Sequence record: NC_031928.1
DNA from: Escherichia phage WG01
Length of the DNA stretch: 64,000 nt
Direction: 5' to 3' (one strand)
Shown: piece by piece, positions 1,118 through 51,594 of the stretch
How the letters are laid out: each line of letters begins with the position of its first letter
Position numbering within the stretch: position 1 is the first letter of the stretch
Made by a program: the position numbers and the translations under genes
The notes under the pieces: generated by a model
What the model saw: the letters and a program-made list of their open reading frames with translations, nothing else
Database searches by the model: none
What the model was told of the DNA's origin: nothing

Positions 1118-3100
1118 ATGTCTTTATTATCACCGGGCATTGAGCTCAAAGAAACGTCCGTACAGAGTACTGTCGTTCGTAACGCAACGGGTCGTGCAGC
1201 GCTGGTTGGTAAATTCCAGTGGGGCCCTGCTTTCCAGGTAACTCAGATTACTAATGAAGTTGAACTGGTCGACTTATTTGGAGGTCCTAATAACGAAGTT
1301 GCTGATTACTTCATGTCGGGTATGAACTTCCTCCAGTATGGTAACGACCTTCGTACTGTTCGTGTTGTTAACCGTGAATTCGCTAAAAACGCGTCTCCGG
1401 TAGCGGGTAACGTCCAAACCACTATTACTACTGCAGGTTCTAACTATGCGGTAGGCGATAAAATTAATATCAAATATAACCAGACTGTTGTTGAATCTGA
1501 AGGTCGTGTAACTTCGGTCGATACAGACGGTAAAATTCTATCAGTGTTTATTCCTACCGGCAAGATTATTTCTTATGCTCGTTCTGTTAACCAGTATCCG
1601 AACCTAGGCCCTGCGTGGACTGCTGAAGTTACTTCTGCCTCTTCCGGTGTTTCTGGTACTATTACTGTCGGTAAAATTGTAACCGATTCCGGTATTCTGT
1701 TGACTGAAGCAGAGAACAGTGAAGAAGCTATTACTTCCCTGGAGTTCCAAGCATCTCTTAAACAGTTTGGTATGCCTGGTGTGGTCGCCCTTTATCCTGG
1801 TGAAATTGGTAGTACTCTGGAAGTTGAAATTGTTTCTAAAGCGGCTTATGATGCTGGTTCTACTAAAATGTTGGATATTTATCCAAACGGTGGTACTCGT
1901 GCTTCTGTAGCTAAAGCGGTATTCAACTACGGCCCGCAAACAGATGACCAATACGCAATTATTGTTCGTCGTGATGGCGCTATCGTAGAATCTGTCGTAC
2001 TTTCTACCAAAGAAGGTGAAAAAGACGTTTACGGTAATAACATTTATCTTGACGACTATTTCGCTAAAGGTACTTCTAACTATATTTTTGCTACCTCTTT
2101 GAACTGGCCTAAAGGCTTCAGTGGTATCATTAATCTTATGGGTGGTGTATCTGCTAACGATCAGGTTACTGCGAGTGATTTGATGCAGGGTTGGGATTTG
2201 TTTGCCGACCGTGAAGCACTCCATATTAACCTTTTGATTGCTGGTGCCGTTGCCGGTGAAGGTGATGAAGTTGCTTCTACCGTCCAGAAACACGTTGTTA
2301 GTATTGCTGATGAACGTCAGGATTGCTTGGCATTTATTTCTCCTCCTAAAGGACTGTTGGTTAACGTTCCATTGACTCGTGCAGTAGATAATCTTATCGA
2401 CTGGCGTACCGGTGCAGGTACTTTCGATACCAACAACATGAACATTAGCACCACTTATGCTGCTATTGATGGTAACTATAAATATCAGTATGACAAATAT
2501 AATGACGTAAACCGTTGGGTGCCTCTGGCCGCTGATATGGCTGGTTTGTGTGCACGTACTGATGATGTTTCTCAGCCTTGGATGTCTCCGGCAGGTTATA
2601 ACCGTGGCCAGATTCTTAACGTTCTGAAATTGGCAATTGAACCGCGCCAAGCTCAACGTGACCGCATGTACCAAGAAGCTATTAACCCAGTTGTTGGTTT
2701 TGCTGGTGGCGATGGTTTCGTATTGTTTGGTGATAAGACTGCAACCAAAGTTCCATCTCCGATGGACCACATTAACGTTCGCCGTCTGTTCAACATGCTT
2801 AAGAAAAATATCGGTGATGCCTCTAAATATAAACTGTTTGAATTGAACGACAACTTCACTCGTTCAAGCTTCCGTATGGAAGTTTCTCAGTACTTAGATG
2901 GTATTAAGGCACTTGGTGGGATTTATGAAGGACGTGTGGTTTGTGATACTACAGTGAACACCCCTGCGGTTATCGACCGTAATGAGTTTATTGCTAATAT
3001 CTACGTTAAACCGGCCCGTTCTATTAACTACATCACGTTGAACTTCGTTGCAACGAGCACTGGTGCTGATTTTGATGAATTGATTGGACCTTTAGTATAA
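1118..3100 (+). CDS. 18: tail sheath protein
   Basis: 660 aa, MSLLSPGIELKETSVQ... N-terminus and length as T4 gp18; SD AAGAGGA upstream; late promoter TATAAATA at 1081. Confidence 0.95.
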   Translation: MSLLSPGIELKETSVQSTVVRNATGRAALVGKFQWGPAFQVTQITNEVELVDLFGGPNNEVADYFMSGMNFLQYGNDLRTVRVVNREFAKNASPVAGNVQTTITTAGSNYAVGDKINIKYNQTVVESEGRVTSVDTDGKILSVFIPTGKIISYARSVNQYPNLGPAWTAEVTSASSGVSGTITVGKIVTDSGILLTEAENSEEAITSLEFQASLKQFGMPGVVALYPGEIGSTLEVEIVSKAAYDAGSTKMLDIYPNGGTRASVAKAVFNYGPQTDDQYAIIVRRDGAIVESVVLSTKEGEKDVYGNNIYLDDYFAKGTSNYIFATSLNWPKGFSGIINLMGGVSANDQVTASDLMQGWDLFADREALHINLLIAGAVAGEGDEVASTVQKHVVSIADERQDCLAFISPPKGLLVNVPLTRAVDNLIDWRTGAGTFDTNNMNISTTYAAIDGNYKYQYDKYNDVNRWVPLAADMAGLCARTDDVSQPWMSPAGYNRGQILNVLKLAIEPRQAQRDRMYQEAINPVVGFAGGDGFVLFGDKTATKVPSPMDHINVRRLFNMLKKNIGDASKYKLFELNDNFTRSSFRMEVSQYLDGIKALGGIYEGRVVCDTTVNTPAVIDRNEFIANIYVKPARSINYITLNFVATSTGADFDELIGPLV

Positions 3101-3225
3101 TCTATTATCCCAGGCTGTAATATAAAGAACCTAAAACCATTATACCATGAGTTTGGTTACAGCGTACATCACGTAGAATTGCGCCTGGGATTGATTATTC
3201 TTTAGGAATATGATTTATCAACTGT

Positions 3226-3233
3226 TATAAATA
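3226..3233 (+). promoter_or_regulatory. late promoter TATAAATA upstream of gene 19
   Basis: Exact consensus; followed by leader hairpin 3247-3267. Confidence 0.6.
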
Positions 3234-3246
3234 AATTAATCAGAAC

Positions 3247-3267
3247 GTTCCTGGTGTGTCCAGGAAC
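3247..3267 (+). promoter_or_regulatory. stem-loop in gene 19 leader
   Basis: GTTCCTGG-TGTG-TCCAGGAAC between late promoter and SD. Confidence 0.4.
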
Positions 3268-3285
3268 TGACTTAAGAGGCATCCC

Positions 3286-3777
3286 ATGGAGTTGACAGAT
3301 ATCACTCGTGCGTTTGAGTCAGGTGACTTTGCACGCCCTAACCTTTTCGAAGTGGAAATTCCATTTCTGGGTAAAAACTTTAGCTTTAAATGTAAAGCAG
3401 CACCTATGCCGGCAGGCATTGTAGAAAAAGTACCGGTTGGCTACATGAACCGTAAAATTAACGTAGCCGGTGACCGTACGTTTGATGATTGGACCATTAC
3501 CATTTATAACGATGATGCACATGACACCCGTCAAGCAATTGTCGATTGGCAGAATCTCTGTCACGGTATGACCAATGAAATTACCGGTGCAGCACCTGCA
3601 GAATATAAGAAACAAGCAGTAGTTCGCCAGTTCCATCGTGACGGCAAGACTGTGACCAAAGAAGTTACAATTTACGGCTTATGGCCTACTAACGTTGGTG
3701 AAGTCCAGATGGATTGGGACAGCAACAACGAGGTAGAAACTTTCGAATCTACGTTCGCTATCGATTGGTGGGAATGA
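3286..3777 (+). CDS. 19: tail tube protein
   Basis: 163 aa, same length as T4 gp19; follows gene 18; SD AAGAGG. Confidence 0.93.
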   Translation: MELTDITRAFESGDFARPNLFEVEIPFLGKNFSFKCKAAPMPAGIVEKVPVGYMNRKINVAGDRTFDDWTITIYNDDAHDTRQAIVDWQNLCHGMTNEITGAAPAEYKKQAVVRQFHRDGKTVTKEVTIYGLWPTNVGEVQMDWDSNNEVETFESTFAIDWWE

Positions 3778-6082: not shown

Positions 6083-6717
6083 TGAAACCTGAATTGCTCA
6101 TCGAACATTGGGGACAACCAGGTGAAATTATCGATGGGGTTCCTATGTTGGAATCTCATGATGGAAAAAATTCTGGGCTTGCTCCCGGCCTTTATATAGA
6201 AGGCATTTTCATGCAAGCAGAGGTAGTTAACCGTAATAAACGCCTTTACCCAAAACCTATTTTGGAAAAAGCCGTTGCCGATTATATGGCAGAACAGGTT
6301 GCTACTAAACAAGCTTTAGGAGAATTAAACCACCCACCTCGTGCTAACGTTGACCCTATGCAAGCTGCTATCATTATTGAAGATATGTGGTGGAAAGGTA
6401 ATGATGTTTATGGACGTGCACGTATCATCGAAGGTGACCATGGCCCGGGTGATAAACTAGCTGCAAATATCCGAGCTGGCTGGGTTCCTGGTGTTAGTTC
6501 TCGCGGTCTTGGTTCTTTAACTGAAACCAATAAAGGATATAAGCGTGTAAACGAAGGTTATAAATTAACCGTCGGTGTTGATGCAGTATGGGGACCATCT
6601 GCTCCTGATGCTTATGTAACTCCGAAGCAAATTACAGAATCACAAACGGTAGAAACCGATACCAGTGCCGATGACGCCTTTATGGCTCTCGCAGAGGCCA
6701 TGAAAAAAGCGTTATAA
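6082..6717 (+). CDS. 21: prohead core protease
   Basis: 211 aa, position and size as T4 gp21; TAATG coupling. Confidence 0.88.
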   Translation: MKPELLIEHWGQPGEIIDGVPMLESHDGKNSGLAPGLYIEGIFMQAEVVNRNKRLYPKPILEKAVADYMAEQVATKQALGELNHPPRANVDPMQAAIIIEDMWWKGNDVYGRARIIEGDHGPGDKLAANIRAGWVPGVSSRGLGSLTETNKGYKRVNEGYKLTVGVDAVWGPSAPDAYVTPKQITESQTVETDTSADDAFMALAEAMKKAL

Positions 6718-7584: not shown

Positions 7585-9144
7585 ATGAAAAAGAATGCAT
7601 TAGTTCAAAAATGGTCCGCTCTGCTGGAAAACGAAGCCCTTCCTGAAATCGTGGGTGCTTCTAAACAAGCTATCATCGCTAAAATTTTCGAAAACCAGGA
7701 ACAAGACATCCTGACTGCTCCGGAATATCGTGATGAAAAAATCTCTGAAGCATTTGGTTCTTTCCTGACCGAAGCTGAAATTGGTGGTGACCACGGTTAT
7801 GATGCTACCAATATCGCAGCTGGCCAGACTTCTGGTGCTGTAACTCAGATTGGGCCGGCAGTAATGGGTATGGTTCGTCGTGCTATTCCTCATCTGATTG
7901 CTTTTGATATTTGTGGTGTTCAGCCTCTGAATAACCCTACCGGCCAGGTATTTGCCCTTCGTGCAGTTTATGGTAAAGACCCTATCGCTGCTGGCGCTAA
8001 AGAAGCTTTCCATCCGATGTATTCTCCGGATGCTATGTTCTCTGGTCAGGGTGCTGCTGAATCTTTCGAAGCACTGGCTGCAAGCAAAGTTCTGGAAGTT
8101 GGTAAAATTTATTCTCACTTCTTCGAAGCTACCGGTGCTGCACACTTCCAGGCTGTTGAAGCCGTAACCGTTGATGCTGCTGCTACTGATGCCGCTAAAC
8201 TGGATGCTGCTGTTACCGCTTTGATTGAAGCTGGTAAGTTGGCTGAATTGGCTGAAGGTATGGCTACTTCTATCGCTGAACTTCAGGAAGGCTTTAACGG
8301 TTCTACCGATAACCCGTGGAACGAAATGGGCTTCCGCATCGACAAACAAGTTATCGAAGCTAAATCCCGTCAGCTGAAAGCAAGCTACTCTATCGAACTG
8401 GCACAGGACCTTCGTGCAGTACACGGTATGGATGCAGATGCTGAACTGTCCGGTATCCTTGCTACCGAAATTATGCTCGAAATCAACCGTGAAGTTATCG
8501 ATTGGATTAACTACTCTGCACAGGTTGGTAAATCTGGTATGACCAACACCGTTGGCGCTAAAGCTGGTGTGTTTGACTTCCAGGACCCGATTGATATCCG
8601 TGGTGCTCGTTGGGCCGGTGAGAGCTTTAAAGCCCTTCTGTTCCAGATTGATAAAGAAGCAGCCGAAATCGCTCGTCAGACCGGTCGTGGTGCTGGTAAC
8701 TTCATCATCGCTTCCCGTAACGTAGTTAACGTACTGGCTGCAGTTGATACTTCTGTAAGTTATGCAGCTCAAGGTCTGGGTCAAGGTTTCAACGTTGACA
8801 CAACCAAAGCAGTATTTGCCGGTGTTCTTGGTGGTAAATATCGCGTTTACATCGACCAGTATGCACGTTCCGATTACTTCACCATCGGTTATAAAGGCGC
8901 TAACGAAATGGACGCAGGTATCTACTACGCTCCGTACGTTGCACTGACCCCGCTGCGTGGTTCCGATCCGAAGAACTTCCAACCGGTAATGGGCTTCAAA
9001 ACTCGTTACGGTATCGGTATCAACCCGTTCGCTGACCCGTCTGCACAGGCTCCTACCAAACGTATTCAGAGCGGTATGCCTGACATCGTTAACAGCCTTG
9101 GTCTGAATGGTTATTTTCGTCGGGTTTATGTCAAAGGAATTTGA
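7585..9144 (+). CDS. 23: major capsid protein
   Basis: 519 aa; size and sequence character as T4 gp23; strong codon bias; followed by a UUCG-loop terminator. Confidence 0.95.
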   Translation: MKKNALVQKWSALLENEALPEIVGASKQAIIAKIFENQEQDILTAPEYRDEKISEAFGSFLTEAEIGGDHGYDATNIAAGQTSGAVTQIGPAVMGMVRRAIPHLIAFDICGVQPLNNPTGQVFALRAVYGKDPIAAGAKEAFHPMYSPDAMFSGQGAAESFEALAASKVLEVGKIYSHFFEATGAAHFQAVEAVTVDAAATDAAKLDAAVTALIEAGKLAELAEGMATSIAELQEGFNGSTDNPWNEMGFRIDKQVIEAKSRQLKASYSIELAQDLRAVHGMDADAELSGILATEIMLEINREVIDWINYSAQVGKSGMTNTVGAKAGVFDFQDPIDIRGARWAGESFKALLFQIDKEAAEIARQTGRGAGNFIIASRNVVNVLAAVDTSVSYAAQGLGQGFNVDTTKAVFAGVLGGKYRVYIDQYARSDYFTIGYKGANEMDAGIYYAPYVALTPLRGSDPKNFQPVMGFKTRYGIGINPFADPSAQAPTKRIQSGMPDIVNSLGLNGYFRRVYVKGI

Positions 9145-9175
9145 TAACATAAGTTATTAATTCTTAAAATTATTT

Positions 9176-9200
9176 GGGAGACTTCGGTCTCCCATTCTTG
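9176..9200 (+). terminator. rho-independent terminator after gene 23
   Basis: GGGAGAC-TTCG-GTCTCCC followed by T-rich tract. Confidence 0.7.
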
Positions 9201-9208
9201 TTTCTGTA

Positions 9209-9475
9209 TTATGCAATCTTAACTCGGCGGTTGATGATATCACGGAAGTCAATACGATTTTCTTGGATTTTCAGCCAGTTACCAGATTTGTCTTTGGTAT
9301 GGGTAGAGTATTCACCGTTCCACCAGAAGTCGGTAGCATAAGCCATGGCTTCGTATTTCTTAACTAAGGCATTCACTGCATTACCATTAGGATTGTTACC
9401 GAATTTTTCTACCAGAGCTTTGATGTCTTTATCAAGAGCGGAAAGAGTAGTACGAATAAAGTTTAACTTGTTCAT
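9209..9475 (-). CDS. hypothetical protein (88 aa), early-promoter-driven ORF between genes 23 and 24
   Basis: ORF-track start 9490 lies inside the SD (ATGAGGAGATTAAAAATG); real start taken as the ATG at 9475; own early promoter upstream. Confidence 0.55.
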   Translation of the reverse strand: MNKLNFIRTTLSALDKDIKALVEKFGNNPNGNAVNALVKKYEAMAYATDFWWNGEYSTHTKDKSGNWLKIQENRIDFRDIINRRVKIA

Positions 9476-9494
9476 TTTTAATCTCCTCATGTTT

Positions 9495-9536
9495 TGATAG
9501 GTCTATAGTAACATGTGAGAATCTTGCTGTAAACAA
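9495..9536 (-). promoter_or_regulatory. sigma70-like early promoter cassette (copy A)
   Basis: -35 GTTTAC, spacer, extended -10 TGTTACTATAG, leader ACCTATCAAAACATGAGGAGA. Confidence 0.55.
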
Positions 9537-9540
9537 CTTT

Positions 9541-9548
9541 TATAAATA
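9541..9548 (+). promoter_or_regulatory. late promoter TATAAATA upstream of gene 24
   Basis: Exact consensus about 30 nt before the ATG. Confidence 0.6.
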
Positions 9549-9576
9549 AACATATACCCTCAATAAGGAAAGCGCA

Positions 9577-10860
9577 ATGGCAAAGATTAACGAATTACTG
9601 CGCGAGTCAACAACTACTTCCAGCAACTCATTGGGTCGCCCTAATCTTGTTGCTTTGACCCGTGCTACAACCAAATTGATTTACCGTGATATTATCGCCG
9701 AACAACGTACTAGCCAGCCTATTGCTGCACTGTATGGTGTCAAATATCTTACCCCTGATAATGAATTTAGTTTCCAGACAGGTGCCTCTTATGGTGGTGA
9801 AGTTGGTTCTAAAGACCGTGAAACTATCCCAGAACTCACAGATAAGGCCCAGGCGATTGCTCAGGGTGAATATTTCAAGTACCAGAATGTGGTTTATAAG
9901 GCTCTTAAAGCAAGCCCACTCGCGTCCACTAGCGCCCCAGAATTGGCTGATGCTCTTCAAGAAGGTTTAGTGTCATTAACATGTCGTCTGGTTCCTGATG
10001 CTGCCCATACCACTAAATTTGAAGCGAGTGATGTAGAAATCTCTGATGCTGTATTCCAGGTTAATAAATGGAATGCTCCGGTTAAGACCCGTAAATTGAA
10101 GACGGCTTTGACTGTAGAATTAGCGCAGGATATGGAATCAAATGGCTTTGACGCGCCGGCGTTCTTAGAAGACCTCTTGGCTACAGTAATGGCAGATGAA
10201 ATTAATAAAGACGTTCTGCAATCTCTAATAACCGTATCCAAACGTTATAAAGTTACTGGTGTATCTGATAACGGCATCATCGATTTGTCTTATGACAGTG
10301 CTCCTGAATCTGCACGTAAACTTTATGAACTCGTTTGTGAGATGAATTCTGAAATCCAGAAAACTACTTCTTATTCTGGCACGTTTGTTGTGGCTTCAAG
10401 TCGTGTGGCTGCAATGCTTGCAGGTTCTGGCTGGTTAAAACATAAACCCGAAGATAATAATTGGCTTCCGGAAACTGCATACGGATATTTGTTGAATGGT
10501 CTGCCTCTGTTTTGTGACGTTAACAGTCCATTAGATTATGTTACCGTTGGTGTTAAAGAGAATTACGGCGGTAATGAAGTTGTCGGTTCTATTTTCTACG
10601 CTCCCTATACCGAAGGCTTAGATTTAGATGACCAAGAACACGTCGGTGCTTATAAGGTTATTGTTGACCCGGATTCATTACAACCTTCTATTTCTCTGAT
10701 GGTTCGTTATGCACTATCAGCTAACCCGTACACCGTGGCTAAAGACGATAAAGAAGCTCGTGTTATCGATGCAACCAATATGGATTTAATGGCTGGACAG
10801 AGCAATATGTCTTATCTGGTTGGCGTTAAACTTCCGGCAATTATTTACGAGGCTGATTAA
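9577..10860 (+). CDS. 24: capsid vertex protein
   Basis: 427 aa, N-terminus MAKINELLRESTTT... as recalled for T4 gp24; late promoter TATAAATA at 9541. Confidence 0.9.
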   Translation: MAKINELLRESTTTSSNSLGRPNLVALTRATTKLIYRDIIAEQRTSQPIAALYGVKYLTPDNEFSFQTGASYGGEVGSKDRETIPELTDKAQAIAQGEYFKYQNVVYKALKASPLASTSAPELADALQEGLVSLTCRLVPDAAHTTKFEASDVEISDAVFQVNKWNAPVKTRKLKTALTVELAQDMESNGFDAPAFLEDLLATVMADEINKDVLQSLITVSKRYKVTGVSDNGIIDLSYDSAPESARKLYELVCEMNSEIQKTTSYSGTFVVASSRVAAMLAGSGWLKHKPEDNNWLPETAYGYLLNGLPLFCDVNSPLDYVTVGVKENYGGNEVVGSIFYAPYTEGLDLDDQEHVGAYKVIVDPDSLQPSISLMVRYALSANPYTVAKDDKEARVIDATNMDLMAGQSNMSYLVGVKLPAIIYEAD

Positions 10861-12140
10861 TGTCTAAGATTGTAGACCTAATTAAAGAATCCACATTGAC
10901 GGCTGCCAGCTCGGTTGGCCGTCCTGCTCTTCTTTCATACACCCAAGCAACTAATAAACGAATCTTTAAAGCCCTAGTTGCTGAACAAAAAACAAATCAA
11001 CCGGTTGCTGCTCTGTATGGGGTACGTGTACTGAATCCTGACGACAAAATGACTTATCTTGGTGGAGCAACATTTGCGGGCCAGATTGGTATGACGGAAC
11101 GTGAAAATATTCCAGAATTTACTGATTCATCTACAGCTTATGCGGTCGGTGATATGTTCCAGTTTGAAAGCGTAGTGTTTAAAGTTCTAGAAGCATCTCC
11201 TTTCGCCGGAACCACAGAAACCAACCTCAGCGAAGTTATTTCTGAAGCAGTGGCAGCCGGCCATATCCGTATGGTGTCGGATGCTGCTATTACTTCTAAA
11301 TTTGAACAAGGCCATCCTGAAATTGCTGAAACCGGATTCCGTATCGACAAATGGCAATCTGAAGTTAAATCACGTAAACTGAAAACTTCATTGACAGTCG
11401 AATTAGCCCAAGACCTAGAATCTAACGGGTTTAATGCTCCTAATTTCGTTGAAAATCTGCTAGGCATTCAAATGGCAGAAGAAATTAATAAGGATGTATT
11501 ACAGTCATTAATTACCGTGAGCTCTCGTTTTAAAGTCCAGGGTGTTTCTGAAAAGGGTGTATTAGACCTTACCAACCCTCGCTACGATAATGCCCAGGAC
11601 CGTGCTCGCACATTATATTATTATATGTGTGAGATGAACTCTGCCGTCCAACGACAGACTTCTTTTGCCGGGACTTATGCAGTAGCTAGTTCTCGTTGTG
11701 CTGCTATTCTCGCCGCCTCTGGTTGGGTTGAGAAAAAGGAAGACCAGGACGAATTGGCTTATGGTATATTAAAGAATGGCCTACCACTTTATGCCGATAT
11801 GAATAGTCCATGTGATTATGTTATTGTTGGTGTAAATGCCCAGATGGGTGAAGGACAGACGGTCGCATCTTTATATTATGCGCCTTATACGGAAGGTTTG
11901 AATGTGGTTGACGAAGAAGGTGATACTTCAGTTGGTGAATTTAAGGTTATTGTTGACCCGGAAAGCTTACAACCTACAGTAGCATTGCTTGCCCGTTATG
12001 CATTGACTGCAAACCCTTATACCGTCGCTAAGGACGATAAAGAAGCCCGCATTATTGATGGTTCTGATATGGACAAAATGGCTAATCAAAGTCAATTGAG
12101 TTCTTATCTCGGCGTAAAATTACCGCCTTTAGAAAAATAA
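10860..12140 (+). CDS. capsid vertex protein paralog (gp24-like, diverged)
   Basis: 426 aa, collinear with gp24 (shared blocks RKLKT.LTVELAQD.ESNGF.AP.F, INKDVLQSLITVS, ANPYTVAKDDKEAR.ID); TAATG coupled to gene 24. Confidence 0.85.
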   Translation: MSKIVDLIKESTLTAASSVGRPALLSYTQATNKRIFKALVAEQKTNQPVAALYGVRVLNPDDKMTYLGGATFAGQIGMTERENIPEFTDSSTAYAVGDMFQFESVVFKVLEASPFAGTTETNLSEVISEAVAAGHIRMVSDAAITSKFEQGHPEIAETGFRIDKWQSEVKSRKLKTSLTVELAQDLESNGFNAPNFVENLLGIQMAEEINKDVLQSLITVSSRFKVQGVSEKGVLDLTNPRYDNAQDRARTLYYYMCEMNSAVQRQTSFAGTYAVASSRCAAILAASGWVEKKEDQDELAYGILKNGLPLYADMNSPCDYVIVGVNAQMGEGQTVASLYYAPYTEGLNVVDEEGDTSVGEFKVIVDPESLQPTVALLARYALTANPYTVAKDDKEARIIDGSDMDKMANQSQLSSYLGVKLPPLEK

Positions 12141-12166: not shown

Positions 12167-13174
12167 TTATTTGGATACTAGTTCAATCCATACATGTCTT
12201 AATGTTTCTTTTACACACTCAACGAGCTGCTTTTTAACTTCAACGGGATTTTCCGCATCAGTTAATTCCAATTCTTCACGGGCGGCTTCTTCAAGGATAT
12301 CCTGGACTGTCAAGCCCATCACCTTTCCGAAATCCTTCGGCGATACTTCGCCAATCTTACTGATGACATTGTTAATGCGGTTAACAGTCACATAATCGGT
12401 GAATTGCCACATCAAATCCATATCGTCTTGGGACAATACCACTGCAACTTTAATAGGCTTATCAGACTTTTTCTTCTCGCTGAATTTAGAGTTCTTACAT
12501 TTAATCGCCACACGATTTCCGTTTGGAAGCCAGGTAGGAACATCAGGTTTCAATACAAAGCCTTCAGCCGTGAATACCTTACCTTCTACCTTAGGAATAA
12601 AATCGGTTGAGTTTGCAATAGTTAAGCCTGCGTTATCCACTGCAAAATTATAATCAGGAACAACTGAATCAAAATCATTAGGAAGTTTAATAAGGTCTTC
12701 AAAGCTACCAGTGGCCAGACATGGAGCTACCTTAAACTTATGGATAATACAGAAGGCTTCCATCAATGTATCGGTTAGAACAGATTCTGAGCCATCTTCT
12801 TTAGTAACTCGGATATCGAACACATAAAAGTCTTTATCGCCGTAGTCCACATTCTTCTGGATACCTGTCCCAGCGAATTCGCCATAAATCTGGTATGACT
12901 GATAATTAATCGATTCAATTAGATGTTGAACTGATTTAATAGAATCAGCGTAGTTCTTAAGTACAATTTCATAACCATAGAAATCTTCAGCAGGGAGGAT
13001 AGGGCCAGTGCGCTTGGCGCATGTGACTGCGTCACGTTCTATGATTAAACTAAAGTTGGTTCCATGAATCTTCTCACGTGCTACCCATTCACCACCAGTC
13101 AAACCGTTAGTACGGAGTTTTTCGATAAACTTACTGTTGTAGTGGTTTTCGAGACTGCTATATTTCTTGAACAT
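12167..13174 (-). CDS. rnlB: RNA ligase 2
   Basis: 335 aa; [20 protein letters not shown]...[15 protein letters not shown] matches recalled T4 Rnl2 incl. lysine-nucleotidyl KxHG motif. Confidence 0.9.
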
Positions 13175-25287: not shown

Positions 25288-25344
25288 AATGTTCTCCTCA
25301 TGTTTGTGTAAGGTAATAGTACCACATCCTTGTGGTGTTGTAAA

Positions 25345-27468
25345 CTACATTTTGAATTTATTTGATAAAGAAGAGATATCCAAAGACGCTGCAAGGATTT
25401 CCATAGCCTCGTTGCTTTCAGAAACAGATTCATTAACCAAGAATTGACTGAACCCATCCATCAGGCGAACTTCACCAGTTTCCATCAAATGGTCACCATC
25501 GTAAACAGATTCGCTGAGCTCTGAAGGAGGTGTTACGGTAGCTTCCATAAGGTATTTGTGAGATACTCTATCATTCATGGCAAAAGCCGCTACTTTATCA
25601 ACCTTCAACAATAATCCACGCGGAAGGATAATTTCTGCTTCTTCGGCATATTCTGTAAGGTCACCAGGAGCGATAACTTTAACTGCTTCAGCACCTCGAA
25701 TAACCATACCAATTTCAGCAATTCTATCTGCAGGACCTTCAGGTGCAATTGGATTACCAAACTCGTCTTCTTCCCATTCTACCTCTTCGTCATCGACTTC
25801 ACCTACATCAGATGAACTACCACTAGCCAATTTAAACAACTCATCAGCGGAGGATAAAGAACCTTCACCGCCAACAAAAACGGCTTGGTTGTCGAGGGCC
25901 ATATAATTTTTACCAAATTCACCAAAGATGTTAGGTTTTAGTGAGGCTGACACAAAGTTCTTAAAGTAAAATGTTTTGTTATCGATATTATGGCGCAGAA
26001 TTTTGTATGGCAAATCCTGACCACGATACAAAATAGTACCCTTAGGAAGTTTAATACCCTTAGTAAATGCCGAGTCTAAATCCTTAATCAATTTAATAGC
26101 CGTTGTATTGTTTTCGGATTCAGGTTTACCTAAAAGGAATAAGTTCATAGGAGCATATTCAGCCGCGCAATATTCAATAATAGCATTGCTTTCGTCTTTG
26201 GTTAGGTCCTTAGGTTTAATGAGCTCGCCTGAATAAGCATATGCATCACTAATAGAATCGTTAACCAGTTTATAAACGGCTTCCATAGCGAAAGCAATTC
26301 TAGATGCTTTCTCTGAAGGGGAACCCTTAAAACGGGTACTCAGGTTATTAACAATTTTCTTAATAATATCCAGACTATTGGTTGTATTGATTTGCGAAAG
26401 GCCACTTAAAAGTCTATCGACTTCTGTATTAAAAAATGCCATATTATTAGAGTAAATTTCAAACCCTTGTTTATCTCTATTAGCATAATTTAGTTTAAAT
26501 TTACTATCAGTCATTAAAGCGTGTGTGAGAGCAATAGTGTATCTAAAGTTGGCAAGGTCCTCGCTCTTAGATTTAAACTGAGAAGCCTGACGCATTTTAG
26601 TAATGGCACCTTTTTTAAAGTTCTGACTAATCTGTTCAATACCTTCGTTCTCAGGGCCTTCAGCCGTGTGAACCGGTACAGAAGCTTCAAACTCGTTATA
26701 AACCTGCAATTCTTTAGGGGACAAAGTTTCAGGCTCAGCAGTAGAATACTGCGCCGCCGCTGCCATACGACGCGAAATCTTAGTACGAGTAATGACAGCC
26801 TTATCAGTACGTTTCTCTTCAACTTGTGCAATAGATGCCGCTACGGCTTCGACCTTACTTACAGCCTGGCCGGTTTTCTTAGAAACATACACTTCGCCAA
26901 CTTTAGACTCAACTTTAGTATAAAGATCGGCATTAATTTCAGGCATACCCTTGATATCTTCAATATTAGCACCACGACGTACTAAAAGAACGTAGGTATG
27001 TTTTCCGCTGAATTGGAACATGTCGTCAACAACTTTAAACTTACCACCGGTACGAGCCATAGCCAAGCGAGCTAATACGCGCTGAACGGTAGGACCTTTA
27101 CCTTTCATTTTCTTGGTAGGGAACCGGAAAAGAACTGCATCCATTTTAAGTTTGTTTACTTGTTCGTATACAGTATCAAAAATGGTATTCAGCGTACCAA
27201 GTGGGTCAGAACCTAACCCACCTTTCAACTCGGCTGGGCTACCCTTAGCAGACAAACTCATCAAAATAACATGAACATATTTGTCGCCCGGCTTAACCAT
27301 TTTAATAGCGTCTCCTTGAGACGCATAAGATACCATACGAGCAACCAGATTATCATTACCTGGTGCTTGGATAGAGAAAATCTGTGGAATACCGGAACCC
27401 GGTTTAAGATTTGTTACTGGATAGTTTTTAGCGGAATCACTATCAAAAACCTCATTTAAATTTTCCAT
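25345..27468 (-). CDS. alt: Alt-like ADP-ribosyltransferase, paralog 1
   Basis: 707 aa; conserved N-terminal ~230 aa shared with the two neighbours; C-terminal ART-like motifs YRGQ, FVSASL, EAEIILPRG. Confidence 0.85.
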   Translation of the reverse strand: MENLNEVFDSDSAKNYPVTNLKPGSGIPQIFSIQAPGNDNLVARMVSYASQGDAIKMVKPGDKYVHVILMSLSAKGSPAELKGGLGSDPLGTLNTIFDTVYEQVNKLKMDAVLFRFPTKKMKGKGPTVQRVLARLAMARTGGKFKVVDDMFQFSGKHTYVLLVRRGANIEDIKGMPEINADLYTKVESKVGEVYVSKKTGQAVSKVEAVAASIAQVEEKRTDKAVITRTKISRRMAAAAQYSTAEPETLSPKELQVYNEFEASVPVHTAEGPENEGIEQISQNFKKGAITKMRQASQFKSKSEDLANFRYTIALTHALMTDSKFKLNYANRDKQGFEIYSNNMAFFNTEVDRLLSGLSQINTTNSLDIIKKIVNNLSTRFKGSPSEKASRIAFAMEAVYKLVNDSISDAYAYSGELIKPKDLTKDESNAIIEYCAAEYAPMNLFLLGKPESENNTTAIKLIKDLDSAFTKGIKLPKGTILYRGQDLPYKILRHNIDNKTFYFKNFVSASLKPNIFGEFGKNYMALDNQAVFVGGEGSLSSADELFKLASGSSSDVGEVDDEEVEWEEDEFGNPIAPEGPADRIAEIGMVIRGAEAVKVIAPGDLTEYAEEAEIILPRGLLLKVDKVAAFAMNDRVSHKYLMEATVTPPSELSESVYDGDHLMETGEVRLMDGFSQFLVNESVSESNEAMEILAASLDISSLSNKFKM

Positions 27469-27471
27469 TAT

Positions 27472-29553
27472 TTACCCTTGGATGAATTTTTCTGGGATGT
27501 CATAGAGGTCTATGCATGAAGCCAAAAGAGGCAGTACATCAAACCGTGTAGATTTAACAAATGAATCAAAAGATAAGGGGCTTTCGGAAGTATCGAAGTC
27601 ATCTTGATATACGACCAACTCGCCGGTTTCCATTAGTACATCACCATCATATACCACAGATTCTTGAAGCTCATCTGTTGTCATAACTTCAGCTTGAATG
27701 AGTTTTGTATTACTAGATGTTGTTCCATCATTATTAGAAGCATCTGTTATTTTATTAACTTTGACCATTAATCCACGCGGTAGAATAACTTCAGCTTCAG
27801 TTGCTATTCCGAGATTTCCTGGATATACGACATTAACTTTATGGGCCCCATCAATAGCCCATCCTATTTGAACTTTAACATAATCAGGATTTTCTTTATA
27901 TGCTCTTATTTCATTAGGATTAATAGTTATTCCTTCTTCATTTTTATCAACTGTCAATTCGTTGCGAACTTCCGGTTCTAAAAGACCAATACCAGCGTGC
28001 GTAACACCAAAACGTCCGAAAATTATAGGAGTTAAAGAAGTAGATACAAAATTTCTAAAATAAAACACTTTATTTTTAACTAGTGCTTCGTATATAGGAG
28101 CAGTCATACTCTGGGCACGATAAACTGTAATGCCTTCCGGTATACGGTCACCATTTTCAAAAGCTGAATCTAAATTATTTACAGCGGATTCGATATCTTT
28201 TTCGCTCATAACCTCATAGTTCTGAGGATTATAACGTCCTAAAAGAAGATTATTTATGTCTGTATATCCTGAACCACAATATTCTCTGATACCACGCTTT
28301 TGTGATGGAGTATATTTAGAACCTTCACGAGCAATAGTAATATCAACCATAATACCACCACCCACACCAGCAAAACTATACACGCGTTTTTTAATGAACT
28401 TAGTCTTGGCTGCTTTCCACTTGGCCTCTGTCAATTCGTTCCAAAGGTCATCAGGTTGGCCTTTACGAGTTCTGTTATGGATAGCCAGCCACTCGCCTTT
28501 ATATTCTTCGAAAATGGTATTAATAGCAGAGGCATATTTTTCTAGAGCTTTAACAGATGTCAAAGGTTCGTTTTTTATTGCTGTAAGAATTTTCTCTTTA
28601 ATTTTCTCTTGGATTTCACCAATACCGTGAAGTGGGAACAATTTATAGTCGTAATGCAATTCTTCAGCAGTGCCTTCAGCTACTATATTAGCAACCTTAT
28701 TTTTAGCCGCAGGAGAATTGTTATTAGTAACCATTTCCTGAGCCTCAGGGATTAATGGAACTGTTGCCGGTTTATTAAAATCCGCTGCAGTAGCTTCATA
28801 TTTCTTAAACAATTCACTTTCATTACGATAAGATTCCAATGATTGGCTTGCTGCAATGGCGCGCCTAGAAATCTTAGTCTTGGTTATAACCATTTTATCA
28901 GTGCGACGTTCTTCAACCTTAGCAATACTACCGGCGATAGCAGTTTCTTTAGTAACCTGCACGCCTTCTTTTTTAGAAATATAAACTTCACCGACATCAG
29001 AATCTACCTTAGTATACAATTCAGCATTAATTCCAGGCATACCTTTGATATCTTCTATATCAGCTTGTTTACGAACTACCAGGATGTAAGTATGTTTACC
29101 GGTAAATTGGTACATAGCCGGAACTACTTTAAAACGTCCACCTGTTTTCTGTGCTACCAAACGTTGGATAATCCGTTGAACGATAGGGCCTTGACCTTTC
29201 ATTTTCTTAGTAGGGAAACGGAACATCACGGCATCCATACGAAGCTTTTTAACCTGTTCGAATACTACGTCGAAAATGGTATTAATAGCATCAATAGGAG
29301 TAGGGCCTAAGCCACCTTTAAGTTCTGCTGGAGTACCTTTAGCTGAAAGGCTCATAAGGATAACGTGGGCATATTTATCACCCATCTTAACCTGTTTAAT
29401 AGCATCGCCTTCAGAAGCATAGGATACCATACGTGCTACTAACTGAGACTCCGCGTCTCCAATCTTCCAAATCTGAGGTACTTTAAGTTTTGGGTTCAAG
29501 TTCACAACAGGCAGTGTACCTTCGGACTCGAACACTTCATTTAATTGGGTCAT
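27472..29553 (-). CDS. alt: Alt-like ADP-ribosyltransferase, paralog 2
   Basis: 693 aa; same architecture; motifs YRAQ, FVSTSL, EAEVILPRG. Confidence 0.85.
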   Translation of the reverse strand: MTQLNEVFESEGTLPVVNLNPKLKVPQIWKIGDAESQLVARMVSYASEGDAIKQVKMGDKYAHVILMSLSAKGTPAELKGGLGPTPIDAINTIFDVVFEQVKKLRMDAVMFRFPTKKMKGQGPIVQRIIQRLVAQKTGGRFKVVPAMYQFTGKHTYILVVRKQADIEDIKGMPGINAELYTKVDSDVGEVYISKKEGVQVTKETAIAGSIAKVEERRTDKMVITKTKISRRAIAASQSLESYRNESELFKKYEATAADFNKPATVPLIPEAQEMVTNNNSPAAKNKVANIVAEGTAEELHYDYKLFPLHGIGEIQEKIKEKILTAIKNEPLTSVKALEKYASAINTIFEEYKGEWLAIHNRTRKGQPDDLWNELTEAKWKAAKTKFIKKRVYSFAGVGGGIMVDITIAREGSKYTPSQKRGIREYCGSGYTDINNLLLGRYNPQNYEVMSEKDIESAVNNLDSAFENGDRIPEGITVYRAQSMTAPIYEALVKNKVFYFRNFVSTSLTPIIFGRFGVTHAGIGLLEPEVRNELTVDKNEEGITINPNEIRAYKENPDYVKVQIGWAIDGAHKVNVVYPGNLGIATEAEVILPRGLMVKVNKITDASNNDGTTSSNTKLIQAEVMTTDELQESVVYDGDVLMETGELVVYQDDFDTSESPLSFDSFVKSTRFDVLPLLASCIDLYDIPEKFIQG

Positions 29554-29561
29554 AATCTATC

Positions 29562-31457
29562 CTATTTAAATAAATTTGCTAATTTTTCCATAGAATCTTC
29601 ATACATAATTCTATCATAATTTCCAAACGAGAATCCGGTGCTATATGAATTTTCCTCTGTGATTTGCTCGGTAGCTACAACTTCACATTCCACTAAAACA
29701 TATTTACCAATTGAACCCATAGGTCCCTTGGAAGCACCGTATACTTTATTAATCTTAAGCATAACCCCACGAGGAAGAATTACTTCGGTTTCTGTAGACC
29801 AATTAGCCAAGTCACCGGGCACAATAACCTTAATTTTATCAGCACCTTTAATAATTAACCCTAGCTTAATGGTATCTCTAGCACTTCCGGTCGCACTTTT
29901 AATGGTGTCTTCAAGATTACTATCTATATCGCTAGAAAGAGCTTCAGGGTCTAAGTTGGATTGAGCATGACCCATTTCACCGAAAATATTAGGAGCCAAT
30001 GAAGTTGATGCAAAAATAGGAAGATACATCACCTTATGTTTTATAGAATTCAAAGCCATTTCGGTAGGCATTATCTGAGAACGATACACTATGGTTCCTT
30101 TAGGAAGTTTTGTACCATTTTCAAATGTAGAATCCAACTCACCAATCATTTTTATCATTTCATCGGTGGTATCTGTTTTACCTAGCAAAAAGTTGTTTAT
30201 ATGGTTGTAGCCGCCACGAGTATACTTTTTGACTGCCTCTTCTTGAGGTTTGGATAAATTAGGATTATCAGATATCTTAAACAACGGTTGGATAGATTTT
30301 GTATAAACTGCTACTAAGGATTTTATTACTTCCTTGATTTTAGATTCTCTAGCCCAAGTACCTTTAACTGAATCATCTAAAAGGGCCGCAGCGACTAGTC
30401 TAAGAATGTCTACATGAGATTTACCTGATTTTAAAGCCTCTATGACACTATTAGATTTATCTAAAGAATCTGATGCCTCTAAAGCAAACTTTATATCAGC
30501 AATTAGTTTAAGTTTGCGCTCGTCTACTTCAAATGATGGATTAACACCGTTAAAAATATAATCCAAATATTCTGCCATTTCTTTAGAGGCGTCTTTTAAT
30601 ATTTTATTACTGGCTAAAGCTATTTGGCTTTCTTTAGAATCTTCAGAAGAATGAACGGAACTAGTAGCAGAATAATCTGCATAAGCTTTTTTGTGCTCTG
30701 CCGAAAATTTACTCAATCCTGTAGGCTCGGCGGTAGAATATAACGCATTTATAGCGGCCCGTTTAGAAACCTTAGTCTTGGTTATAACCATTTTATCAGA
30801 ACGTGATTTTTCTATTTCGTCTATAGACTTAGCTATAGCTTCTAATTTGGTAACATCTTCGCCTGTTTTCTTTGAAACATACACATCACCGACTTCAGAT
30901 TCGACTTTAGTATACAATTCCGGATTAATATTAGGAATACCGTTTATTGATTCTATATTTTTATTTTTACGATAGATAAAAACATATGAATGTTTGCCTG
31001 TATATTGATACAAGGCATCAAGGACCTTGAATTGCCCACCTGCTCTAGTAGCTATTAATTTGGCTAGAACTCGTTGTACAGCTTTTTCCTGACCTTTCAT
31101 TTTCTTAGTAGGAAAACGGAACATAACGGCATCCATACGGAGCTTTTTAACTTGTTCATAAACCGTATCAAATATAGAACGAATAGCGGAAATGGGGTTA
31201 CTACCTAAACCACCTTTGAGTTCTGCCGGGGCCCCTTTAGATGATAGGCTCATTAAAATAATATGAACGTATTTGTCACCCGGTTTAACTTGGCGGATTG
31301 TATCACCTTCAGAAGTATATGAAACCATGCGTGCAACAAGGTTCTCATTACCTTCAGCCTTTATATTCCAAATCTGTGGTACTTTAAGTTTAGGGTTTAA
31401 ATTGACAGCTGATAAATCTATAGCGCCGTCAAATACCTCATTCAATTGTTCGGACAT
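29562..31457 (-). CDS. alt: Alt-like ADP-ribosyltransferase, paralog 3
   Basis: 631 aa; motifs YRSQ, FASTSL, ETEVILPRG; SD AAGAGGAA. Confidence 0.85.
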   Translation of the reverse strand: MSEQLNEVFDGAIDLSAVNLNPKLKVPQIWNIKAEGNENLVARMVSYTSEGDTIRQVKPGDKYVHIILMSLSSKGAPAELKGGLGSNPISAIRSIFDTVYEQVKKLRMDAVMFRFPTKKMKGQEKAVQRVLAKLIATRAGGQFKVLDALYQYTGKHSYVFIYRKNKNIESINGIPNINPELYTKVESEVGDVYVSKKTGEDVTKLEAIAKSIDEIEKSRSDKMVITKTKVSKRAAINALYSTAEPTGLSKFSAEHKKAYADYSATSSVHSSEDSKESQIALASNKILKDASKEMAEYLDYIFNGVNPSFEVDERKLKLIADIKFALEASDSLDKSNSVIEALKSGKSHVDILRLVAAALLDDSVKGTWARESKIKEVIKSLVAVYTKSIQPLFKISDNPNLSKPQEEAVKKYTRGGYNHINNFLLGKTDTTDEMIKMIGELDSTFENGTKLPKGTIVYRSQIMPTEMALNSIKHKVMYLPIFASTSLAPNIFGEMGHAQSNLDPEALSSDIDSNLEDTIKSATGSARDTIKLGLIIKGADKIKVIVPGDLANWSTETEVILPRGVMLKINKVYGASKGPMGSIGKYVLVECEVVATEQITEENSYSTGFSFGNYDRIMYEDSMEKLANLFK

Positions 31458-35949: not shown

Positions 35950-35990
35950 TACAGGTCTATAATAACACAACCTGTACCAAAGTAAAACAT
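35950..35990 (-). promoter_or_regulatory. early promoter cassette (copy G)
   Basis: -10 TATTATAGACC then leader GTACCAAATAATACGAAAACAAACTGGAGAATAAAA. Confidence 0.45.
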
Positions 35991-36395: not shown

Positions 36396-36421
36396 TTTTT
36401 TTTAAAGATTTAGAAACAAAA

Positions 36422-36443
36422 ATGGGACTCCGAAGAGTCCCAT
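36422..36443 (-). terminator. terminator after the 53-aa ORF
   Basis: ATGGGACTC-UUCG-GAGTCCCAT on minus strand followed by T-run. Confidence 0.6.
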
Positions 36444-43245: not shown

Positions 43246-43264
43246 TTTGTTTTCTCCTCATTAG

Positions 43265-51482: not shown

Positions 51483-51504
51483 TTTATTTCCTCATCTATT
51501 AGTT

Positions 51505-51545
51505 GATAGGTCTATAGTATCACGTTTAAAGGCGTTGTAAACCAT
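51505..51545 (-). promoter_or_regulatory. early promoter cassette (copy D)
   Basis: Nearly identical to copy C. Confidence 0.55.
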
Positions 51546-51594
51546 TAAATGCCAAAAAGGGAAGACCGAAGTCTTCCCATTATAAATCAATAAC

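Follow-up and report, generated by a model that had tools for sequence, protein, structure and literature searches.

Organization of the region between genes 23 and 24

We examined the region between the late head genes 23 and 24 in a stretch of 64,000 nucleotides from Escherichia phage WG01 (NC_031928.1), hereafter called the window. A 1.6-kb segment of this region was 98.5% identical to vB_EcoM_IME540, 98% identical to QL01, Bp7 and others, and 93% identical to JS98 and JS10; judged by these similarities, the window comes from a JS98/Bp7-like Dhakavirus (Straboviridae, Tevenvirinae). Membership in Tevenvirinae makes the WG01 lineage a virulent one. The local gene order was 67, 68, 21, 22, 23, small ORF (minus strand), 24a, 24b and rnlB (minus strand).

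A sequence-only reading of this DNA had described a minus-strand ORF of 88 amino acids between the terminator of gene 23 and the late promoter of gene 24, and had regarded it as an early, moron-like unit running opposite to its neighbors. All of these elements were located in the region, including a promoter, an ORF and a terminator belonging to the unit itself:

7585-9144, plus strand: gene 23
9175-9194, both strands: hairpin TGGGAGAC-TTCG-GTCTCCCA, identified by folding, comparison with shuffled sequences and conservation
9209-9475, minus strand: 88-codon ORF with the start MNKL and the stop codon at 9209-9211, identified by a PHROG 6003 match and dN/dS
9476-9498, minus strand: unstructured leader of about 23 nt, its 5' end inferred from the position of the -10 element
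9483-9488, minus strand: Shine-Dalgarno sequence GAGGAG, 7 nt before the ATG
9505-9534, minus strand: sigma70-type (T4 early-type) promoter, with -35 element GTTTACA (9534-9528), a 17-nt spacer including TG, and -10 element TACTAT (9510-9505)
9541-9548, plus strand: gene 24a late promoter TATAAATA, placed back to back with the early-type promoter and within the A/T-rich sequence upstream of the latter
9577-10860, plus strand: gene 24a
10860-12140, plus strand: gene 24b
12167-13174, minus strand: rnlB

We consider it likely that the locus as a whole is a minus-strand early unit set between two late head genes, 23 and 24, in a JS98-like phage, and we have high confidence in the anatomy listed above taken jointly with the evolutionary reading developed below.

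The hairpin begins 31 nt past the stop codon of gene 23. Its folding energy was -14.4 kcal/mol on the plus strand and -13.5 kcal/mol on the minus strand (z-scores of -3.8 and -4.9, respectively), it was more stable than every one of 200 shuffled sequences, and it was rated terminator-like for both strands. On the plus strand, TGGGAGAC-UUCG-GUCUCCCA followed by the tail AUUCUUGUUUC is the predicted intrinsic terminator of gene 23. On the minus strand, where the tail is AAAUAAUUUUA, the same hairpin is predicted to terminate the small gene or to form the 3' end structure of its transcript; because this minus-strand U-tract is poorer than the plus-strand one, termination of the small-gene transcript may be partial. 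The hairpin was kept beside gene 23 in T4, fPS-90, SP18, JS09 and IME08.

The small ORF encodes a conserved phage protein

The sequence-only reading had suggested a homology search for the 88-amino-acid product, and this search returned a full-length match to PHROG 6003 (E value 6.8e-50, residues 1-88 aligned to profile positions 1-88 of 90), a family which includes JS98 orf173, SP18 gp189 and RB69 ORF188c/189c. Far from lacking relatives, the ORF was detected by tblastn in 236 phage records, with at least 90% identity in 85 of them, 60-80% in 32 and less than 60% in the remaining 119. Nucleotide differences from the closest relatives were mostly synonymous: 7 synonymous and 3 non-synonymous differences from JS98, and 11 and 5, respectively, from IME08, which correspond to a dN/dS of about 0.10 in both comparisons. 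By this sequence evidence the 88-codon ORF qualifies as a true gene under purifying selection. A chance open frame in an intergenic spacer, which might be suspected from the short length (88 codons) and the lack of a known domain, is refuted by the conserved family, the purifying selection, the strong Shine-Dalgarno sequence and the confident fold described below, and we regard it as practically excluded. The gene has been catalogued already: Bp7, QL01 and vB_EcoM_FB carry the identical protein under the label hypothetical protein, and so do some 200 phage genomes for the gene as a whole.

Two start codons were considered. The program-made ORF list and several GenBank records give a protein of 93 amino acids that begins with the ATG at 9490. 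We rejected this start since it lies within the conserved leader, overlaps the Shine-Dalgarno sequence and is just some 8 nt downstream of the predicted transcript start; in addition, in the cassette copy that was checked (43253, see below), the corresponding ATG was out of frame with the downstream gene. Its position and its frame at 43253 thus indicate that the 88-amino-acid start, which agrees with the JS98 annotation, is the correct one.

The product is a soluble protein of 10.2 kDa with a pI of 9.6. Compared with the WG01 protein, identity was 100% in Bp7, QL01 and vB_EcoM_FB, 98% in JS98, 61% in SP18 and 33% in JS09, and a length of 87-93 amino acids, a pI of 9.4-9.8 and the hydrophilic character were kept in homologs down to 27% identity. 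Invariant residues were M1, K3, F6, N30-G31-N32, A45 and Q71, and L14, L21 and N35 were nearly so. An apparent C-terminal variant, for which tblastn aligned residues 1-72 only, was an alignment artifact, since the C-terminal sequences hardly differ. Modeling with AlphaFold2, for which 17 family members were used, gave a confident structure (mean pLDDT 93.5, pTM 0.79) made up of a helix (residues 3-25), a second helix (31-48), a beta hairpin formed by residues 52-61 and 67-71, and a C-terminal helix (77-87). The invariant N30-G31-N32 forms the loop joining the two long helices, and the turn of the beta hairpin is conserved as well; judged by the topology, this loop and the turn should lie at the same pole of the molecule.

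We further checked for relatives outside this family. An exhaustive HMM search of 1.84 billion cluster representatives found 9 clusters at 50% identity, a total which includes at least two apparent chance matches: P0025 and P0026, both long repeat proteins, were judged spurious because a low-complexity NGN-type stretch was matched in many of their repeats. The tiny size of the family makes guilt by association impossible. Pfam searches with the WG01 protein and 17 family members gave sub-threshold matches only (DUF5380, 12.8 bits against a cut-off of 29 bits), and the GIY-YIG domain of homing endonucleases was absent. PADLOC yielded two weak matches (E values of 0.002-0.005) of two different members to unrelated models, which we took as chance. 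No sequence in PDB was matched below an E value of 0.1 in a profile search, no PDB structure was matched by Foldseek with an E value below 1, and the sole return of Foldseek from BFVD was a member of the family itself (A0A346FIP4). An HMM search of the six-frame ORFs of the window detected no paralog, and a literature search on the gene names found nothing relevant in the searchable library. An HU/IHF-type fold was also considered on account of its size of about 90 residues, basic character and helix-helix-beta-beta-helix order, and was rejected as no HU-type chain appeared in any search.

An early-type promoter and leader repeated across the window

The promoter of the small gene, GTTTACA-N17(TG)-TACTAT with an A/T-rich upstream region, has the features of T4-type early (sigma70) promoters and fits the T4/PST early consensus TTTACW-N17-TAYWAT (PMC4122927). 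Structure prediction for the leader (9476-9498) gave no structure, and the leader sequence was kept across copies of a promoter-leader cassette located elsewhere in the window. The sequence-only reading had mentioned cassettes elsewhere, and this cassette does recur, far above chance: with no more than two mismatches allowed, GTTTACA-N14-TGNTAYTATAG occurred 4 times in the window against 0.01 expected. Copies were found at 25293, 43253, 50487, 50777 and 51495, and looser copies at 35955, 36361, 39541 and 54778; the direct-repeat families D7, D8 and D10 connect 9482-9516 with the first five. The cassette consensus was GTTTACA-N17-TG-TACTATAGACCTATCAACTAATGAGGAG, followed by an ATG within about 10 nt, and an ORF of 72-184 amino acids was present downstream of every copy checked (all except 54778). 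The copies at 50.4-51.5 kb were situated between the equivalents of frd and gene 32, that is, in a block of prereplicative genes. An upstream UUCG stem-loop was present at the copies at 51495 and 36361, which gives these the architecture of the promoter-early stem-loop cassettes discussed below (PMC2839356).

The late promoter of gene 24a, TATAAATA, is located 7 nt beyond the early -35 element and 29 nt before the start of gene 24a. Its motif occurred 16 times in the window against 6.5 expected; 12 of the copies were on the plus strand, and 9 of these 12 fell in the head-gene block before 9548. We aligned the approximately 100 nt between the small gene (or segD, which occupies the same place in T4, see below) and gene 24 from WG01, JS98, SP18, JS09, two metagenomic contigs and T4. 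The same architecture was kept in this alignment: TATTTATAAA (the late promoter on the other strand), G/ATTTACA, 17 nt, TG, TAYTAT, a Shine-Dalgarno sequence and AAAATGA. The late-promoter motif was kept in all of these relatives, and the one deviation was in SP18, where the -10 element aligns as CATAAT, the TG is missing and the leader is about 12 nt longer.

In T4, the sequence upstream of segD was TTTACA-N17-TATTAT, and the alignment identifies this putative segD promoter as homologous to that of the small gene. A review of T4 mobile elements stated that a segD-specific promoter had not been found and that transcript levels were probably vanishingly low (PMC2988022). A later, time-resolved transcriptome and proteome study classified T4 segD as an early RNA and a middle protein, and the protein was detected (PMC9697503, supplement files 4-6). 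The conserved promoter would offer a simple account of the early segD RNA of T4. The promoter class, together with homology to the promoter of T4 segD and its early RNA, suggests that the WG01 unit is likewise expressed early.

The back-to-back arrangement raises the question of whether the unit acts at the level of RNA or DNA, the ORF being incidental: leftward transcription or a bound polymerase might modulate the gene 24 late promoter, or the transcript might be antisense to gene 23. The -35 element is only 7 nt from TATAAATA, the promoter architecture is conserved more than the protein, and the weak minus-strand tail makes read-through into antisense gene 23 conceivable. However, a dN/dS of about 0.1, the preserved frame and length and the confident model all point to selection on the protein, T2-like phages express genes 23 and 24 without such a unit, and V5-like phages carry the protein outside the context of head genes. 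We therefore think it improbable that the unit serves such a role, and consider it primarily as a protein-coding gene.

A four-state slot between genes 23 and 24

The ORF was situated in the 23-24 slot, on the strand opposite to genes 23 and 24, in every T4-type genome examined: the Dhakaviruses IME540, JS98 and IME08, the Gaprivervirus SP18 and the Mosigvirus JS09, whose record carries a note equating the ORF with RB69ORF188c. Two metagenomic T4-like contigs also had the ORF in this slot (27% and 57% identity). In the RB69 reference genome, two frameshifts (+1 and -1) divide the gene into ORF188c and ORF189c. In T4, the slot contains segD alone, which encodes a GIY-YIG endonuclease of 223 amino acids on the minus strand, and approximately 53 records had this arrangement; the seg-type homing endonuclease which the sequence-only reading had placed in the T4 slot is thus exactly there. 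The same reading had called the WG01 occupant unrelated to it, and this view held: the small protein has no Pfam match, belongs to a different PHROG and is distinct from the SegD of both T4 and IME08. An HMM search of six-frame ORFs covering about 99% of the T4 genome (all but approximately 2 kb within genes 18/19) detected no homolog of the 88-amino-acid protein, the best E value being 0.13. A third arrangement was seen in IME08, IME341 and UP19, in which segD begins 3 nt past the ORF; both genes are on the minus strand, flanked by the promoter and the hairpin. Most Tequatrovirus genomes (T2, RB3, AR1, fPS-90) and Klebsiella T4-like phages had no gene in the slot; in fPS-90, the hairpin of gene 23 is followed by 16 nt and then by TATAAATA.

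The gap between genes 23 and 24 is therefore a polymorphic slot with four states (empty, ORF, ORF plus segD, and segD), and it is well suited to studying how an essential late operon accommodates accessory cassettes and homing endonucleases at shared landing sites. Absence from T4 and T2-like phages and the frameshifts in RB69 indicate that the small gene is probably dispensable for basic growth. The gene is also a long-standing occupant of the slot, although it has diverged much faster than its neighbors, since homologs with as little as 27% identity are still found there and its GC content (0.39) equals the mean of the window (0.399). The SegD proteins of T4 and IME08 were 56% identical, and segD is, by the same sequence-based reasoning, an old tenant of the slot as well. 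The comparison across T4-like phages thus showed a gene that some relatives have and others lack; loss in T2-like phages is as possible as the insertion named in the sequence-only reading.

Additional homologs, with 38-40% identity, were identified in V5-like phages, namely in ABPH49 (Vequintavirinae) and in metagenomic contigs of 62-141 kb. These homologs sit within long arrays of small, co-oriented ORFs that carry no annotation, a location which implies that the protein is not tied to head genes. A consensus sigma70 promoter was sought directly upstream of the V5-like homolog, and none was there.

These distributions bear on the possibility that the protein is an accessory factor of head assembly, for example one linked to the duplicated vertex protein (gp24a/gp24b). 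Such a role would agree with the location of the ORF between the two head genes and with its co-occurrence with two copies of gene 24 in Dhakaviruses and in the two metagenomic relatives. However, the ORF is on the opposite strand and has a sigma70 early-type rather than a late promoter, SP18 and JS09 contain the ORF together with a single gene 24, the V5-like homologs are found among small non-structural ORFs, and T4 and T2 lack the gene, which carries frameshifts in RB69. A head-assembly function is thus very unlikely.

Exchange of the ORF-segD module in Mosigvirus

Two phages carried an ORF allele that differed from that of their relatives. The typical Mosigvirus allele was only 33-36% identical to the WG01 protein, whereas the Mosigvirus LF82-3, and also JK45, had a Dhaka-type allele with 95% identity, and in both phages segD was located 3 nt downstream of the ORF. 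We compared LF82-3 with JS09 and IME08 in 50-nt windows and observed a mosaic with three parts:

gene 24 side through the promoter and leader: 92-100% identity to JS09 (98-100% in 4 of 6 windows), 66-84% to IME08 (about 67% in the promoter/leader windows)
ORF start codon through about two-thirds of segD: 40-62% to JS09, mostly 94-100% to IME08 (two windows at 86% and 76%)
from about 100 nt into the 3' end of gene 23: 100% to JS09, 62-90% to IME08

The left crossover fell inside the GAGGAG common to both parental leaders. The right junction was more diffuse: it took in the 3' third of segD, the hairpin and the end of gene 23. The chimeric junction was present in at least 15 records: it was 100% identical in 12 records of the LF82 series and 94% identical in ATK47, ATK48 and mobillu. 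These alignments place one precise recombination boundary in the conserved promoter-leader and show that the ORF allele moves between genera along with segD. Such a pattern is consistent with endonuclease-initiated repair with co-conversion, or with shuffling of the kind described for promoter-early stem-loop (PeSL) cassettes; a crossover within a ribosome site of 6 nt shared by both parents is a clear, naturally occurring instance of the modular shuffling that has been proposed for PeSLs.

The exchange also raises the possibility that the ORF is tied to segD, as its cargo or helper or by bearing or adjoining the SegD recognition site, and that it has been maintained by selfish spread and not by a benefit to the phage. 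In IME08, LF82-3 and JK45, segD begins 3 nt past the ORF stop codon in the same transcription unit; the Dhaka-type allele replaced the Mosig-type allele wherever segD had entered Mosigvirus genomes, which resembles co-conversion; and T4 segD uses a homologous promoter. However, most of the ORF-bearing genomes sampled, including WG01, have no segD, and the ORF is under purifying selection without it. Identity of 27-36% between genera is far too low for recent spread. No endonuclease was annotated in a 5-kb stretch of ABPH49 around the V5-like ORF, only unannotated ORFs of 35-188 amino acids surround the homolog in V5-like contigs, and T4 keeps segD without the ORF. We regard a tie of this sort as unlikely, if less so than a role in head assembly or at the level of RNA or DNA.

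Comparison with known systems

JS98 orf173, SP18 gp189 and RB69 ORF188c-189c are the same gene in the same slot and orientation, and nothing material differs between them and the WG01 ORF. The T4 segD unit shares with the WG01 unit the slot, the minus-strand orientation, the UUCG hairpin beside gene 23 and a TTTACA-N17-TAYTAT promoter placed back to back with the late promoter of gene 24. It differs in that it encodes the 223-amino-acid GIY-YIG endonuclease and that the approximately 99% of the T4 genome searched had no homolog of the 88-amino-acid protein; IME08-type phages carry both genes in tandem.

PeSL cassettes and the associated ORFan modules have been described in T4-like phages, among them RB49/phi1 (Arbiol et al. 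2010, PMC2839356; Comeau et al. 2014, PMC4122927). Like them, the WG01 cassette is a repeated sigma70 promoter with an A/T-rich upstream region and a Shine-Dalgarno sequence and start codon on its 3' side, adjoins small non-essential ORFs which vary between relatives, and is a site of recombination (in LF82-3, inside the Shine-Dalgarno sequence). Unlike them, the copy at 9505-9534 has its sole hairpin at the 3' end of the ORF, where it is common to gene 23, and the unit is located inside the conserved head-gene block and not in a hyperplastic region. A stem-loop within or upstream of the promoter, as in PeSLs, was absent from 9499-9576. Simple integration of a PeSL mini-circle was considered and is unsupported, as it should have left a second stem-loop separating the early promoter from the late one, where no such structure exists.

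The morons of lambdoid phages are autonomous promoter-gene-terminator units inserted between genes of late operons. The WG01 unit likewise has its own promoter and terminator, lies between two late structural genes and is carried by some relatives but not by others. It differs from morons in residing in a virulent phage with no prophage expression, in having the same GC content as the genome and in being an old resident. Accordingly, the term moron-like used in the sequence-only reading fits the autonomous organization and the presence/absence pattern, but not a distinct base composition or expression from a prophage.

Possible function of the small protein

Small early genes of unknown function number in the dozens in T4-type phages, and many T-even early proteins bind a host protein or nucleic acid during takeover of the cell or evasion of its defenses. 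The WG01 protein, being small, basic, cytoplasmic, folded, fast-evolving, dispensable and under an early-class promoter, fits such host-binding proteins. Of the functions considered, binding to a host macromolecule (protein or nucleic acid), as an aid to takeover or a counter to defense in some hosts, seems the best candidate, and we put it forward tentatively. Host RNA polymerase would fire the promoter in the first minutes of infection and produce a monocistronic mRNA of roughly 300 nt (about 305-325) that ends at the hairpin, and the small basic soluble protein with its conserved NGN loop would act early. The unit would be silenced when sigma70 promoters are shut off, and gp55-dependent transcription would then start from TATAAATA in the opposite direction.

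A more specific version appears rather doubtful at present: the 88-amino-acid protein, whose fold has no match in PDB and BFVD, could be an effector that acts early, such as an inhibitor of a host defense or of a nucleic-acid enzyme, and could form with segD a two-gene mobile module that recombines at the promoter-leader, in which case the ancestral promoter would explain the early segD RNA of T4.

The gene itself is an ordinary accessory gene, already catalogued, and by itself matters little. What the locus adds is the four-state slot, the crossover in a shared ribosome site and the promoter explanation for early T4 segD. The confident fold without a known relative makes the protein a reasonable, if not urgent, candidate for screens of phage early effectors.

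Promoters and stem-loops of the early cassette

The promoter of the small gene, the minus-strand 88-codon ORF between genes 23 and 24a, was found by sequence comparison to be homologous to a motif that precedes segD, the GIY-YIG homing endonuclease gene of the corresponding T4 slot:

T4 NC_000866, locus 6245-6290 (record about 107244-107289), minus strand: TTTACA-N17-TATTAT, immediately 5' of segD, identified from sequence

According to a 2010 review, a segD promoter could not be found and negligible expression was expected (PMC2988022); a 2022 omics study assigned segD RNA to the early class and detected the SegD protein (PMC9697503 supplement).

Two other copies of the early promoter cassette in the window are immediately preceded by UUCG-loop stems, identified from sequence, and have the full PeSL-type (promoter-early stem-loop) arrangement:

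Window 51540-51574, minus strand: UUCG-loop stem, AGACTTCGGTCT
Window 36405-36440, minus strand: UUCG-loop stem, GGACTCTTCGGAGTCC

The tail following the second of these stems, CCCATTTTTGTTTC, is similar to that following the gene 23 hairpin, CCCATTCTTGTTTC.

The small gene in related genomes

The Dhakavirus-type allele of the ORF, together with segD, was also present in some Mosigvirus-type genomes, such as LF82-3 (2455-3440) and JK45, whose flanks were 98-100% Mosigvirus-like. The crossover in these recombinants lies within the leader GAGGAG common to both types, and the recombinant junction was observed in 12 LF82-series records and also in ATK47, ATK48 and mobillu at 94%. An orthologue occurs in RB69 in split form, as recognized by comparison with JS09:

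RB69 NC_004928, 492-732, minus strand: ORF188c (41 aa) and ORF189c (29 aa)

Compared to the intact JS09 gene, the RB69 reference carries a +1 and a -1 frameshift that account for the split; the gene has either decayed to a pseudogene there, or the frameshifts are errors of early sequencing. One 160-aa metagenomic protein (P0023) consisted of an unrelated N-terminal sequence of 123 aa joined to a segment with 88% identity to residues 33-63 of the small-gene family; its source contig is 701 nt long, and this protein is most likely an assembly chimera.

Duplicated genes in the window

Gene 24, which encodes the head vertex protein, is present as two tandem copies:

Window 9577-10860, plus strand: gene 24, first copy
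Window 10860-12140, plus strand: gene 24, second copy

The two copies share 55% protein identity and are annotated as 24a and 24b in JS98 and IME08; SP18, JS09 and T4 have a single gene 24. Three other genes, tandem paralogues of one another, encode proteins of 631-707 aa:

Window 25345-27468, minus strand: PF03496-domain gene
Window 27472-29553, minus strand: PF03496-domain gene
Window 29562-31457, minus strand: PF03496-domain gene

All three contain the ADP-ribosyltransferase exoenzyme domain (PF03496), as does T4 Alt, and these genes explain the repeat families D1, D2, D4 and D9 of the window.
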